Source of the DNA: an uncultured Gammaproteobacteria bacterium
GTDB taxonomy: Bacteria > Pseudomonadota > Gammaproteobacteria > Pseudomonadales > UBA5518
NCBI GenBank assembly: GCA_903938575.1
Contig: CAJADV010000404.1
Span: 1 to 44,045 of the forward strand
Direction of reading: 5' to 3'
Length of the DNA: 44,045 bases
Part shown: positions 33,446 to 37,916 of the stretch, piece after piece
Numbering within the stretch: the first letter of the stretch is position 1
How the letters are laid out: every line of letters starts with the position of its first letter
Made by a program: the position numbers and the translations under genes
The notes under the pieces: model-generated
The model's input: the letters and a program-made list of their open reading frames with translations, nothing else
The model's database searches: none
Told to the model about the DNA's origin: nothing

Positions 33446-34900
33446 TCAGCCGAAGAGCCCCTGGGCGAACCACTCGCCACTTGCTCTTTCGCGGAACACC
33501 CATAGCAGTGTGCCGCTGCCATGTCTGCCGATGAAATAGTCGCGTCGCTGCGGCTCACCCCACCAATTGCTGTCGATGCGCTCTGGCCCCGAGATCAGGT
33601 CTATCGGGCCATTCCAATCCGGTTGTGCCTCGGTTCCCCCGAGTCTTGTGGGTTGCCGTAACAGCCAGCAGGGCCGTTGCATCCAGGTGCTGGTGCCTGC
33701 ATGCGCGGCGGGTTCGTGTACGCCGTTCCAGGCTTGCTCGGGCAGGGTTGCATCCGCGAGGTACAGACCGTGTACCCGGTCCATGCCGAGCCGCAGTCGC
33801 AGGCGATCCAGCAGTAACCGTTCGGCCTCGCCACCGTCGCTCGACTCCTCTGCAAAGAGGCTGTTGATCTTTCCCTCCAGCGCTGCTGTTTCCAGGCAGG
33901 CAAGTCCGAGGGATTCCGTGGCCTCTGCAAGGCGCAGTCCCTCCAGCGCGAGTCGCGTGAGGTCCAGTAACGCATCGGTGCGATGCTGCTGTAGCGAGCA
34001 CGCCACAGGCAGTATCCGAAGTTCGCCGTGTGCCACACCCAATCGCCACTCGAGCCGCTGGCAGTAGAGCTGGCGGCGCTCCAGAAAACGCCCCATGTCG
34101 GCGAGAAGCCGCCGGGCCGGGAACAACAGCATGTTGGCGTTGCAGACCGGCTCAAGGAAGTGGAGGGTGCTTTCGAAGCGATCGCGTGGGCGGTGCGTGC
34201 AACGCGGGTCATGGCTATGGCCTGCGAGCCGCTGGAGGTAATCCGGGAATGCCTTCCCGAAGCGTCGGCCCAGTGCCGCCCGCGGCAGCGCGAGCAACTC
34301 GCCTATCCGTGTGAAGCCCATGCGCTGCATCGTGAGTTGCTGCTTTTCGGGCGCAGCGAGCAGTTCTACAGGCAGTTTCCCCAGCATTTTCTGGAAGGCA
34401 TCGGGCTCGTTTTGGAGTTGCCATGGCGGTAATGCCACGGCGTTGCAGGGCAGGGCACGAGCCATCAACTCTGCTCCTGATGGCGTGGGTCCCAGTCCGC
34501 AGCACACCTTGTGCCGGCGTGCCGCCAGATCTGCCTCCATCACGCCGAGCAGCGCAGCCTCACCGTGGAACAGCCGCAGGCTTGCGCCTATTTCGAGCAG
34601 CAGGCGATCGGGAGGTGAGACGCAGACCTGCGAGCTGAAGTTGCAGGCCCAGTCGGCGAGCGCGATCAGTGTGGCGGCTTCGTGTGCAGGTTCGCGCTCG
34701 CGCAGCCTGAGCGAGCCTGAGAGCGCCTGTGCCGTGCTCGCCGACATGCCTGGACGAATGCCGAGCGCTGCAGCGGAGTCGTTTGCTGCGCAGACGCGGT
34801 GCCGTTCCGTCACGGCAAGCGGTGGATCCGTGTCGGGTGGCCCTGCAAGGCTGAACACCTCCAGCGGCAACTGCGTGAAATGCAGGCACAACCAGAGCAT
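33446..34900 (-). CDS. imuB: Y-family DNA polymerase-like protein ImuB
   Basis: MLWLCLHF, LLLEIGASLRLF, LPRAALGRRFG; C-terminal RPCWLL...GPERIDSNWW...RRDYF...WFAQGLFG. Confidence 0.88.
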   Translation of the reverse strand: MLWLCLHFTQLPLEVFSLAGPPDTDPPLAVTERHRVCAANDSAAALGIRPGMSASTAQALSGSLRLREREPAHEAATLIALADWACNFSSQVCVSPPDRLLLEIGASLRLFHGEAALLGVMEADLAARRHKVCCGLGPTPSGAELMARALPCNAVALPPWQLQNEPDAFQKMLGKLPVELLAAPEKQQLTMQRMGFTRIGELLALPRAALGRRFGKAFPDYLQRLAGHSHDPRCTHRPRDRFESTLHFLEPVCNANMLLFPARRLLADMGRFLERRQLYCQRLEWRLGVAHGELRILPVACSLQQHRTDALLDLTRLALEGLRLAEATESLGLACLETAALEGKINSLFAEESSDGGEAERLLLDRLRLRLGMDRVHGLYLADATLPEQAWNGVHEPAAHAGTSTWMQRPCWLLRQPTRLGGTEAQPDWNGPIDLISGPERIDSNWWGEPQRRDYFIGRHGSGTLLWVFRERASGEWFAQGLFG

Positions 34901-34905
34901 GGCGG

Positions 34906-35688
34906 TCAGTGCAGGGCTGGCTGCTGCGGCCCGGATGCGGGCGGCGGGTTGTGTGTGTCCATGGGCAGCTCCGCTTCATCATCACGCTTGACGGTGTTCC
35001 CGCGTACGATCACCGGCATCAGTGCCGGCATTACCCGGTGTGCCAACAGCTGGGAGGGGCGACCGAGCAGAATGCGCTGTCCGGCGCGCCCACCGCGCTG
35101 TTTGAGAATCTCGAGGGTCAGTCCCGCGGTTTCGTGCTGGAGCTGGATCCGCAAGGCTGCCGGCGATACCAGGCTTGCGCCGGCGCAATCCCGGAACAGG
35201 AAAACCGGCCCACGCGCATGACGCGCGGCAATCTGCAGGCGGCGCAGGGCGGTGTAACCCGCGGCGCCGCGACCATCAGGCAACCAGCCGAGCAGGCACC
35301 CGCAGGCGCCAGAGCGCAGTATCTGCTCCATACTCCAGAACAGCTCCCCGGGTTGTTCCGGCGTGAGCACCACCAGTCGTTCCAGCCTGAGGCCTAGCGC
35401 ATGCAGGGCGGGTGCGTAGGGGATGTGGGGCGGTGCTACAAAAAAGATCCGCTGAACCCCGTGTGAGAGGTGTGCAAGCGCGGGTGCGATCAGCTGCATC
35501 TCGCCAATACCACAGCTCGTTGCCAGCAGTTCGGTCAAGGCAGCGCGGGGCCAGCCACCCTGATGCAGCGCCGCATCGAGCGCCGGGTGCCCGCTTGGCA
35601 GGCAGTGGTGTGGCTCGTTGGCGGGCGCATGGCGTCCGGATTGCCAGATGTCGGGGCGGGCGAGGATGCTGAGCAGGGAATCGGACAT
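34906..35688 (-). CDS. imuA: Translesion synthesis protein ImuA (RecA/SulA-like); alternative start 35694
   Basis: PSGHPALDAALHQGGWPRAALTELL, PPHIPYAPAL, LRRLQIAA and SPAALRI...ILKQRGG motifs. Confidence 0.88.
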   Translation of the reverse strand: MSDSLLSILARPDIWQSGRHAPANEPHHCLPSGHPALDAALHQGGWPRAALTELLATSCGIGEMQLIAPALAHLSHGVQRIFFVAPPHIPYAPALHALGLRLERLVVLTPEQPGELFWSMEQILRSGACGCLLGWLPDGRGAAGYTALRRLQIAARHARGPVFLFRDCAGASLVSPAALRIQLQHETAGLTLEILKQRGGRAGQRILLGRPSQLLAHRVMPALMPVIVRGNTVKRDDEAELPMDTHNPPPASGPQQPALH

Positions 35689-35697
35689 ACGCATTGA

Positions 35698-35717
35698 TAC
35701 TGTAAATACATACAGTA
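35698..35717. promoter_or_regulatory. LexA (SOS) box
   Basis: TACTGTAAATACATACAGTA = CTGT-N8-ACAG with TA flanks, directly upstream of imuA. Confidence 0.92.
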
Positions 35718-35828
35718 GTTTCTTGCCATTGCCTCTGCTTGTAAAGGAGCTTGTTCCTGGCTGTGTCCAGGCCTTCTGCAACCTACAATGGGCTTCGTCG
35801 CCAATTTCCCCTGCCGAGGACGCTACCC

Positions 35829-36455
35829 ATGCGCCAGCAATTCATCACGATGCTCGAAATGCAGGAGCGGATGAACCGCAAGGTCCACCCCGACTGGATC
35901 AAGCAGAATTTTGCCTGGCACCGGGCGCTGTGGATCGAGTGTGGCGAGTTGATCGAGCACCATGGCTACAAGTGGTGGAAAAAGCAGGAGCCGGCCTGGG
36001 GGCATGTTCGTCTCGAGCTGGTCGACATCTGGCACTTCGGCATGAGCATGTGCTTCGACGGCAGCAACACCCCCGGCCAGATTGCAGACCAGATGCTTGA
36101 TCAGCTTGCGCTTGAGCGCCCTGCCGGTGTTCCCCTGCTGGAGGCGGTTGAGGCTCTCGCCACCGACGTTCTCGTCCGGCGCTGTTTTTCCGTGGTCCGT
36201 TTCTGGACCGCCATGGAGGCTGCAGGTCTTGACAGCGACAGTCTGTTTACGGCCTATGTGGGCAAAAACGTGCTCAATTTTTTCCGTCAGGATCATGGCT
36301 ACAAGGATGGTAGTTACCACAAGCAGTGGGACGGTCGGGAGGACAACGAGCACTTGAGTGAGTTGCTCGAACAGCTTGACAGACATGATTCGGCGTTCCC
36401 GGAGCGGCTTTATGCGGCACTCGAAGAGCGCTACCGGCAAGTCGCTGTCACTTGA
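35829..36455 (+). CDS. Dimeric (all-alpha) dUTP diphosphatase
   Basis: MLEMQERMN, ECGELIEHHGYKWWKKQ, LELVDIWHFGMS and YVGKNVLNFFRQDHGYKDGSY..W.GREDNE motifs. Confidence 0.88.
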   Translation: MRQQFITMLEMQERMNRKVHPDWIKQNFAWHRALWIECGELIEHHGYKWWKKQEPAWGHVRLELVDIWHFGMSMCFDGSNTPGQIADQMLDQLALERPAGVPLLEAVEALATDVLVRRCFSVVRFWTAMEAAGLDSDSLFTAYVGKNVLNFFRQDHGYKDGSYHKQWDGREDNEHLSELLEQLDRHDSAFPERLYAALEERYRQVAVT

Positions 36456-36469
36456 CCCGCTCATGCTGG

Positions 36470-36694
36470 TTATGCACACCTCAGTTGCTACTGGGGAGAA
36501 GCGTGTAAAAACGAAACAATTTTGTCATGTTGATTCATTTTGACTTTAAGATGATGCTGTAACAAATTGATTAAAAAGGATAATATGGGAATTGTACATT
36601 TTGTGACCAATCCGTCTCAGGGCCAGCAGGAGCACGGACCCGGGCAGCATACTCAGATCTTATCCTCATACTTATCCACAGAAATTGTGGACAA
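36470..36694. promoter_or_regulatory. DnaA-box cluster with IHF and Fis consensus sites (DARS-like element)
   Basis: TTATGCACA 36470-78; IHF AATCAATTTGTTA (minus strand, 36560-72); Fis-like GTACATTTTGTGACC 36594-608; triplet TTATCCTCA 36660-68, TTATCCACA 36672-80, TGTGGACAA 36686-94; AT-rich background. Confidence 0.72.
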
Positions 36695-36711
36695 CTCCCT
36701 GGCGTTTCGGG

Positions 36712-37617
36712 ATGCCTGAAACGGAGATCTTTGTGTCTGGGACCTCCCTGGCCCGACGCCTGAACATGCCTACCCGGGAGCTGTTTCGGCTGCTCTCAGA
36801 ACACGGTTGGATACAGCGTCAGGGTGAGCAGTGGCGGTTGACTGGCAAGGGTGAATTCGAAGGCGGGCGCTACCGCCACAGCGAACGCTTCGGCCAGTAC
36901 ATCGCCTGGCCAGAGACGCTGCTCCAGCACCGTATTTTCAACGCGGGCCAAGAGCACGGCCTGCTCGGCTCGGCAATGCTTGGCGAGCGCTTCGGGCTTT
37001 CTGCCCGTCAGGTCAATCTGCTCCTGCACGAACTCGGTTGGATACGACGGGCCCTCAGGGGCTGGGAGATCACGCCGCGGGGAAAGGTCCTGGGAGGCAT
37101 TCAGGAGGAGTATCCGGATACCGGCGTGCCCCATGTCCGCTGGCCTGCAGCCATCCAGTCGCATCCCGTGCTGGAGCAGAATTTACGCGTGATGCACGCC
37201 TACGAGCACCTTGGCGAGGCAGAGGGCGTGGATCTGTTCGCCGACCCGGAGGCAGATATCTGCGTCGAGCTTGCCGGTGACAAGGCGCTGCGCGCACTCG
37301 ACGGACATGTCCTGCAGAGCAAGGCGCACCTCATGATCTGCCATTGGCTGTATATGTCGGGGATCGTGCATGCGGCAGGCAGGCGCTTGCCTGTCGAGGG
37401 CGATTACAGGTCCGACTTCTACCTGCCTTCCCTGCAGTTGTATCTCGAGTATTGGGGCGACGAGAACGCACCCGGGCAACTCTCGGCCAAGCTTGCCAAG
37501 CGCGCCGTCTACGAGCGGCATGGCCTCAGTCTGCTGGAACTGGATGCGGAGGATCTGCCCCGGCTCGATGAGGTGCTGCCGCGCAAGCTCCTCAAGCATG
37601 GACTCGCTGTTTATTGA
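36712..37617 (+). CDS. Putative DNA-binding protein: two antirepressor-like wHTH repeats plus a C-terminal restriction-endonuclease-like domain
   Basis: Repeats LARRLNM..RELFRLLSEHGWI..WRLTGKG / LGERFGL..RQVNLLLHELGWI..WEITPRG; C-terminal DGHVLQSK...SDFYLP..LYLEYWG. Confidence 0.7.
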   Translation: MPETEIFVSGTSLARRLNMPTRELFRLLSEHGWIQRQGEQWRLTGKGEFEGGRYRHSERFGQYIAWPETLLQHRIFNAGQEHGLLGSAMLGERFGLSARQVNLLLHELGWIRRALRGWEITPRGKVLGGIQEEYPDTGVPHVRWPAAIQSHPVLEQNLRVMHAYEHLGEAEGVDLFADPEADICVELAGDKALRALDGHVLQSKAHLMICHWLYMSGIVHAAGRRLPVEGDYRSDFYLPSLQLYLEYWGDENAPGQLSAKLAKRAVYERHGLSLLELDAEDLPRLDEVLPRKLLKHGLAVY

Positions 37618-37916
37618 GCTCTGCCGACGTCCGCGGCGAAGGCACTCATTGCCTCTGCCAACAGCATGTCCAGCTCCGTTACGCCACCGACGTCGTGTGT
37701 GTTCAGTTGCACACGCACCCTGTTGTAGACGTTGAACCAGTCGGGGTGATGATCCAGCTGCTCTGCCCGCATGGCCGAGCGGGTCATGAAGGCAAACGCG
37801 GACGAGAAATCCTTGAACCTGAATTCACGTACCAGCCGGTCGTCGCGATGCTCCCACCCTGGCAGGGACGCGAGCCGTGAGGCCACATCGGTGTCGGGAA
37901 GCCGGGTCGGTCTCAT
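37611..37916 (-). CDS. phhB: Pterin-4-alpha-carbinolamine dehydratase
   Basis: FRFKDFSSAFAFM, AEQLDHHPDWFNVYNRV and THDVGGVTELD motifs. Confidence 0.92.
   Translation of the reverse strand: MRPTRLPDTDVASRLASLPGWEHRDDRLVREFRFKDFSSAFAFMTRSAMRAEQLDHHPDWFNVYNRVRVQLNTHDVGGVTELDMLLAEAMSAFAADVGRAQ

Follow-up and report, generated by a model that had tools for sequence, protein, structure and literature searches.

Does the intergenic gap between a dUTPase-like gene and a winged-helix (wHTH) gene of an uncultured gammaproteobacterium hold an element that reactivates the initiator protein DnaA, as DARS1 and DARS2 do in Escherichia coli? An initial annotation, made from the letters of a 44,045-nucleotide stretch of DNA (the window), had proposed a DARS2-like element with IHF and Fis sites in this gap. 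To our knowledge, genome annotation pipelines do not mark DARS-type elements. In the portions of the literature available to us, experimental work on DARS is confined to E. coli, sequence conservation is described only for 'E. coli-proximal' species, and an extract of PMC4451416 places them in 'a number of Gammaproteobacteria'. Our literature search found no DARS-type element described in Pseudomonas-like orders, and a part of the wider distribution reported here may already be in print.

A composite element occupies the dUTPase_2-wHTH intergenic gap

The composite element, 225 bases long, occupies the non-coding, intergenic gap between the two genes, and its G+C content is 0.40-0.44 versus 0.65 genome-wide. 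The sites that we placed in and beside it are listed below, with offsets measured along the minus strand, starting at the first base of box I; the Fis and IHF sites are predicted.

35829-36455, plus strand: dimeric dUTPase-like gene (Pfam dUTPase_2, E 3.7e-28), flanking the element and outside it
36470-36694, minus strand: whole composite element, with the core, the conserved 8-mer, the Fis-like site, the IHF-like site and the distal DnaA box
36470-36478, plus strand: distal (fourth) DnaA box, TTATGCACA, offset +216, oriented like boxes II and III
36560-36572, minus strand: IHF-consensus 13-mer, WATCAANNNNTTR, perfect, offset +122
36594-36608, no strand assigned: Fis-consensus 15-mer, GNNYRNNWNNYRNNC, perfect, offset +86
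36648-36655, minus strand: conserved 8-mer, TGAGTATG, offset +39, 4 bp beyond box III
36660-36668, plus strand: DnaA box III, TTATCCTCA (minus strand TGAGGATAA), tandem to box II
36672-36680, plus strand: DnaA box II, TTATCCACA, perfect consensus (minus strand TGTGGATAA)
36686-36694, minus strand: DnaA box I, TTGTCCACA (plus strand TGTGGACAA), 1 mismatch to TTATCCACA, opposed to box II
36712-37617, plus strand: wHTH gene, 301 aa, with a weak N-terminal winged-helix match, flanking the element and a possible target of repression

The core reads TTATCCTCATACTTATCCACAGAAATTGTGGACAA on the plus strand (36660-36694) and has a 9-5-9-3-9 layout, with 5 bp between boxes I and II, 3 bp between boxes II and III, and box I opposed to the other two, which is the arrangement that the initial annotation had described. 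A search for TTATCCACA with one mismatch allowed gave 7 sites in the 44 kb window, 4 of them within 36470-36694. The perfect IHF consensus, the Fis 15-mer and the fourth box named in that annotation were all present as well, at positions that are fixed across relatives (see below). The distal box, which reads TGTGCATAA in core orientation, begins 15 bp past the dUTPase_2 stop codon. A further Fis match that overlaps it carries 1 mismatch, and the sole strict Fis site is the one at +86, between the core and the IHF site. The 8-mer TGAGTATG could represent a degenerate additional DnaA box or else, through its plus-strand letters CATACT, a promoter -10 element; a degenerate box III' beside box III is described for DARS1 in an extract of PMC6868365.

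The three-box pattern is unique in the genome and lies apart from oriC

The window is contig C404 of an assembly of 4,359,736 bases in 661 contigs that is 97% complete. We searched both strands of it for TTATCCACA-N5-TGTGGATAA-N3-TGTGGATAA, counting mismatches over the 27 box positions. A single site in the 4,359,736 bases was found at up to 6 mismatches, namely the element itself with 2 mismatches, and the next-best match, with 7 mismatches, was the same site on the other strand. When only boxes I and II were searched for, with as many as 4 mismatches over their 18 positions, the element was again the sole site, and the pattern with a variable box position that we used for E. coli (see below) gave 1 match and none in its reversed control. 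The expected number of sites at up to 2 mismatches is 4e-8 at the G+C content of the genome and 5e-6 at 40% G+C. Together with the uniqueness of the pattern, these numbers exclude chance. No second DARS was found at up to 6 mismatches in this 97% complete assembly, from which one could be missing.

Replication origins, too, typically combine DnaA boxes with IHF and Fis sites and an AT-rich stretch. The genome has 5 perfect copies of TTATCCACA, two of which belong to a four-box cluster at C208:15995-16294 that directly precedes dnaA (C208:16402-17778); this cluster is likely to be the oriC and dnaA-promoter region. Because dnaA and this cluster are on a different contig, C208, we rejected the reading of the element as oriC. 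Besides oriC and the element, the only other near-consensus DnaA-box cluster in the genome was found at C56:2909-2939, where three copies of TTATCCGCA follow one another on one strand with an 11-bp period. A search of Rfam gave no match in 36000-37000 at E values up to 1.

The core and its accessory sites compared with DARS1 and DARS2

For comparison, the whole MG1655 chromosome was searched with TTATNCACA-N5-TGTGNATAA-N3-TGTGNATAA at up to 3 mismatches, with any base accepted at the variable box position. Exactly 2 matches were found in E. coli K-12, the cores of DARS1 and DARS2, with 0 in the reversed control, and neither oriC nor datA was matched at this threshold. The DARS1 core, in the bioD-uvrB gap (NC_000913 813107-813141), consists of TTATCCACT, 5 bp, TGTGGATAA, 3 bp and TGTGTATTA; the DARS2 core, in the rppH/ygdT-mutH gap (NC_000913 2969135-2969169, or L002:3136-3170), consists of TTATTCACC, 5 bp, TGTGGATAG, 3 bp and TGTGAAGAA. 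Taking 2969135-2969169 as the DARS2 core fits an extract of PMC11724364, according to which box II of DARS1 alone matches the consensus in full and every other core box has a single mismatch. A second 9-5-9-3-9 cluster in E. coli, 316 bp from the DARS2 core (L002:3452-3486, NC_000913 2969451-2969485), combines a perfect middle box with outer boxes that are very degenerate, and may represent boxes IV-VI of PMC4245941, which are called dispensable in the part of that source available.

When set against the two E. coli cores, the element showed the same 9-5-9-3-9 layout as both. Its 5/3 spacing, which had been likened to DARS1, equals in distance and orientation that of DARS1 and also that of DARS2, and the core spacing of the two DARS is described as identical in an extract of PMC5742627. 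Boxes I and II are reported to be opposed and 5 bp apart, with box II as the entry site (PMC6868365, in part). In the element we found this opposed 5-bp pair, the shared spacing and a perfect box at the position of box II, all at a non-coding chromosomal site outside oriC.

The accessory sites of E. coli DARS2 were placed from its sequence and the text of the papers. On this basis, IHF-like sites lie at +93 and +109 (1 mismatch each), a strict Fis site at +145 and a full TTATCCACA box at +211. The PciI site of DARS2, at +121, is described as lying beside the IHF site, and the IHF site as lying about midway between the DnaA and Fis sites (both from an extract of PMC11724364). Like DARS2, the element is an AT-rich, non-coding sequence outside oriC with a three-box core, an opposed box I and Fis consensus sites; in both, an IHF site lies ~110-120 bp from the core start on the box III side, and a further box stands at +216, compared with +211 in E. 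coli. Given the scored offsets and the midway position reported for IHF, the IHF site and the distal box agree well with DARS2 in their order and distances. In the DARS2 subtype, an IHF site stands between the core and the distal Fis/DnaA sites at a spacing that affects activity; the predicted IHF site at +122 corresponds to it in consensus and fixed position.

However, the element differs from DARS2 in its flanking genes and in having a perfect box II, whereas all three DARS2 boxes have one mismatch to TTATNCACA. Its strict Fis site at +86 precedes the IHF site, whereas the essential FBS2-3 of E. coli lie beyond IHF, where they overlap low-affinity DnaA boxes and box V; the dispensable FBS1 of E. 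coli may lie in the interval between core and IHF. In addition, the distal box at +216 is opposite in orientation to the E. coli box at +211.

On the other hand, the core layout, the perfect box II and the near-consensus boxes I and III are shared with DARS1, which also carries, at +223, a reverse-oriented box with a single mismatch, compared with the distal box at +216 here. From the DARS1 core to +223 we found no strict IHF or Fis site, and both are present and fixed in position in the element; an extract of PMC5742627 states that DARS1 needs neither protein. Overall, the element is somewhat more probably than not a DARS2-type DnaA-reactivating sequence.

Conservation of the element in the genus and family

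The conservation in related genomes that such an element calls for was found at a syntenic locus in 15 of the 16 genomes of the genus. Eleven of the 16, our own genome included, had a core at up to 3 mismatches, in each case within the order trmA, pterin dehydratase, wHTH, core, dUTPase_2, imuA. Four more had a core with 4-5 mismatches at the same locus, with boxes I and II intact and box III decayed. In the 16th (G009, 87% complete), the dUTPase_2 query by which we located the locus gave no match. One genome, G010, has two identical core copies on different contigs (C2:503812 and C5:17243), which may reflect assembly redundancy or duplication, the genome being 7% contaminated. The core was also found in one further genus of the family (locus L017).

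We aligned 12 loci, L017 among them, and scored site offsets at 14 loci of the genus. Box I with its two flanking bases and the distal DnaA box were invariant in 12/12 aligned loci; box II was identical in 11/12, with TGTGCATAA in core orientation at L017, and the 8-mer TGAGTATG was nearly invariant. Box III varied within the genus (TGAGGATAA, TGCGGATAA or TGAGCATAA in core orientation) and was degenerate in four genomes. The 180 bp between the core and the distal box had diverged heavily with almost no indels in this alignment, and the span from the core start to the distal box was 216 bp in 13 of the 14 scored loci and 218 bp in the remaining one. A Fis consensus stood at +86 in all 14, its inner letters differing, and an IHF consensus at +122 had 0 mismatches in five of them and 1 mismatch in another five. 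At L017, the Fis site lies at +86, the IHF site at +122 and the distal box at +205.

The same module occurs at other loci in the order and class

Of 41 genomes sampled across the order, 28 had one or more cores with no more than 3 mismatches, against 0/41 in the reversed control. Sampling the class evenly, we found a core in 22 of 30 other families, with 1-4 per genome and 0/31 in the control. We scored the accessory sites at 18 loci from other families of the order: 14 had a Fis site at +84 to +87, 15 an IHF site at +118 to +123 and 10 a distal box, often TGTGCATAA, at +194 to +212, where the IHF site and the distal box were each allowed a single mismatch. The neighbors at these 18 loci were PTPS-pterin-trmA (3), dUTPase_2 (2), an acyl-CoA-synthetase-like gene (2), the arrangement trmA-core-uvrB (1) and others that occurred singly.

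A named genome collection was scanned with a stricter pattern and gave at least 120 stretches, from gamma- and betaproteobacteria, several Deinococcus and a few others; these are not independent, as many are orthologous, and those listed represent an arbitrary portion of the collection. Among the 119 listed matches with enough flank, 58 had a Fis site at +80 to +92, 56 an IHF site at +112 to +130 (no more than 1 mismatch), 45 a distal box at +195 to +225 and 13 all three together, against a background of 0-10 per 25-bp bin. Within the matches listed, dnaA was never the neighbor. The Deinococcus stretches (L087, L090, L112, L115 and L151) have near-perfect three-box cores beside a trpF-like gene and, among the matches listed, carry no Fis or IHF sites at the scored offsets; they show this box geometry in a phylum distant from the proteobacteria.

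These distributions bear on the idea that the cluster is a relic or an auxiliary origin-like sequence, left for example by mobile DNA such as a plasmid that integrated, or a functionless chance cluster. Its origin-like site content and the occurrence of the module at different loci in different lineages would fit such a history, but no replication-initiator or mobile-element gene adjoins the element, synteny is conserved in the genus, the module is present in 1 to 4 copies per genome, and the chance expectation is 4e-8. We therefore regard this explanation as very improbable.

The protein factors are encoded, with misfits at DnaA position 208 and in Fis

The genome encodes a DnaA that is 63% identical to that of E. 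coli, an Hda-like AAA+ protein, both the alpha and beta subunits of IHF (over curated cut-offs) and a Fis protein that is 56% identical over 73 residues. DnaA keeps Lys178, Val211, Leu214, Gln215, Arg227, Phe239, Lys243, Arg285, Leu290, Arg334, Arg399 and Thr435, and its residue aligned with E. coli Gln208 is Gly. Thus, of the residues needed for E. coli DARS, Leu290 and Arg227 are kept and Gln208, which makes the head-to-head contact, is not. Extracts of PMC6868365 report that the E. coli Q208A variant lowers DARS1-driven ADP release from ~90% to ~40%, is severely inactive when DiaA is present and no longer shows the toxic effect of multicopy DARS2. In Fis, Arg replaces Gln68 and Gly replaces Arg71, and the DNA-binding residues Arg85 and Arg89 are kept; Gln68 has been proposed to contact DnaA at DARS2 (PMC11724364, in part).

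The DnaA residue at position 208 was Ala in 27/30 and Gly in 3/30 of the proteins sampled from the order, whether or not a core was found. The class sample (n=29) had Ala in 18, Ser in 3, Gly, Arg and Val in 2 each, and Glu and Gln in 1 each. We saw no link between Gln208 and the presence of a core across the order and class samples, because nearly all of the sampled DnaA proteins lack Gln at this position. Our literature search returned nothing on natural variation at DnaA position 208. Gly208 in DnaA and Arg68 in Fis imply that other contacts do the job here or that the conserved module has another primary function, and it is mainly these two misfits that keep our confidence in the DARS2-type reading close to even. 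The initial proposal of a DARS2-like element in a non-enteric bacterium stands in every sequence-level part; DnaA Gly208, Fis Arg68 and the position of the Fis site before IHF speak against the very same mechanism as in E. coli.

Another function for the module could be that of a DnaA-titrating sink or of a datA-like site at which IHF promotes hydrolysis of DnaA-bound ATP, either of which would restrain initiation. Like the element, datA is a chromosomal DnaA-box cluster with an IHF site, and it alters the nucleotide state of DnaA; DnaA boxes plus an IHF site define it in extracts of PMC5742627 and PMC11724364. The absence of Gln208 across the order and most of the class also means that the function for which the layout is kept need not be Gln208-dependent ADP release. 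However, datA promotes ATP hydrolysis and has no match to the three-box pattern, which in E. coli found the two DARS cores and neither datA nor oriC, and the datA arrangement of boxes 2, 3 and 7 with a single IHF site is not the arrangement of the element, as judged indirectly from the failure of the three-box pattern to match datA. Moreover, the extracts name IHF, not Fis, as the datA factor, and the 5-bp head-to-head pair is tied to ADP release in E. coli (PMC6868365, in part). A sink or datA-like role is accordingly rather improbable in our judgment.

The module is separable from its flanking genes

In E. coli and V. cholerae, DARS1 is positioned upstream of uvrB and DARS2 upstream of mutH, and here the flanks are dUTPase_2 and wHTH. 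The initial annotation had noted that this locus is unlike the uvrB and mutH sites of E. coli. The flanking genes indeed differ, but the locus is less foreign than that suggests: one relative of the same order has its core upstream of uvrB, as trmA-core-uvrB, a likeness to DARS1, and in our genome the distance between trmA and the element is 1.2 kb. Neither uvrB (with the first 158 residues of E. coli UvrB and PF17757 as queries) nor mutH (with the queries used) was found in our own assembly; PF17757 matched only a 1180-aa, Mfd-sized frame on contig C65.

The dUTPase_2 and wHTH genes are neighbors in many families (L227, L232, L237 and L243-L250), often ~40 bp apart, and this conserved pair adjoins a pterin dehydratase gene and trmA. 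On the minus strand of the window, at 33446-35781, an ImuB-like gene (Pfam IMS) and an upstream open reading frame in the position of imuA, with no Pfam match, resemble a damage-inducible mutagenesis cassette. This cassette and the dUTPase_2 gene are arranged back to back, and the starts of their long open reading frames overlap near 35751-35781.

An operator or promoter function alone could also account for DnaA boxes at this place: DnaA, with IHF and Fis, would set transcription of wHTH or of dUTPase_2-wHTH according to the DnaA level, with no effect on the nucleotide state of DnaA. Box I ends 17 bp before the wHTH start codon (36712), and the plus-strand CATACT of the 8-mer is a possible -10 element. 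In four metatranscriptome runs we found 7 short contigs, which cover 36290-37021 and 37547-37700; one of them spans 36594-36842, bridging the core and the wHTH gene. Such RNA-library contigs give no start, strand or level, are uninformative about the parts that they leave uncovered and may include DNA carry-over, and thus offer a weak hint that transcripts may cross the core. There is also a precedent in DARS1, which lies in the promoter region of uvrB, a gene regulated by DnaA (PMC6015884, in part).

However, a simple scan found no sigma-70-like promoter on the plus strand, and the fixed 216-bp span with its distal box exceeds the needs of a simple roadblock. The wHTH gene and the module also part company. 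Homologs of wHTH occur in 38 of 151 genomes of the order. At 25 of 27 wHTH loci outside the family there was no core within 400 bp upstream, many of the genes following dUTPase_2 after ~40 bp, and the remaining 2, from one genus, had a core with 4 mismatches. Conversely, in the closest relative (G006, DnaA 98% identical), wHTH is reduced to a 59-aa remnant with a stop codon, and the module is intact. The gene can thus do without the module, and the module persists where the gene has decayed. Among the collection matches listed, moreover, the module follows the 3' end of proS (16 loci) or precedes priA (12) or recA (5), besides other genes, in geometries that differ. An operator function alone is thus unlikely, although it is the strongest of the alternatives that we weighed.

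No NCBIfam family was found for the wHTH protein, and its homologs are named 'hypothetical protein' by their sources. The scan gave no terminator-like site, and its only promoter-like sites are on the minus strand, where three sigma-70-like matches were found at 36580-36620 (0.4 expected in shuffles). They overlap the Fis-like site, face the distal box, and run antisense to dUTPase_2 and away from wHTH.

Under the DARS2-type reading, regulation of wHTH would be a side effect. Such an effect on its transcription is likely given the 17 bp between box I and the start codon and the RNA contig that crosses the core, and the bound complex probably also damps the wHTH gene.

A model for the element and its wider meaning

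From the sites, their spacing, their conservation and the factor genes, all of which are observed, we infer the following course of binding, looping and ADP release. ADP-DnaA would bind the perfect box II first, and would recruit a second protomer head-to-head on box I, across 5 bp, and a third head-to-tail on box III, across 3 bp. Fis at +86 and IHF at +122 would shape the AT-rich arm, and a sharp bend by IHF, with its centre near +128, would fold the distal box, ~92 bp beyond it, onto the box III end of the core, ~92 bp before it. The resulting looped complex of DnaA, Fis and IHF could loosen ADP from the protomers on boxes I and II, after which apo-DnaA would leave and rebind ATP, and the initiation potential would rise.

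The distribution of the module admits a broader, more tentative proposal. We consider it possible, though doubtful, that it is an ancient module found across Gammaproteobacteria, including the beta-proteobacterial orders, which combines a fixed geometry with lineage-specific loci, frequently next to genes of DNA metabolism (priA, recA, uvrB, dUTPase), and works with a DnaA with Ala or Gly at position 208. Its geometry would comprise the core, Fis at +86, IHF at about +120 and a distal box at +190 to +216. If this is true, the contacts made by Gln208 of DnaA and Gln68 of Fis would be a late enterobacterial refinement, and the ancestral module would either rely on other contacts for ADP release or serve another main purpose.

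A complete DARS2-like layout is thus present in a distant, high-G+C freshwater gammaproteobacterium, at another locus, and the wider counts suggest that control of the nucleotide state of DnaA may be general in the class. The natural occurrence of Ala or Gly at DnaA position 208 makes the head-to-head model from E. coli a testable comparative question.
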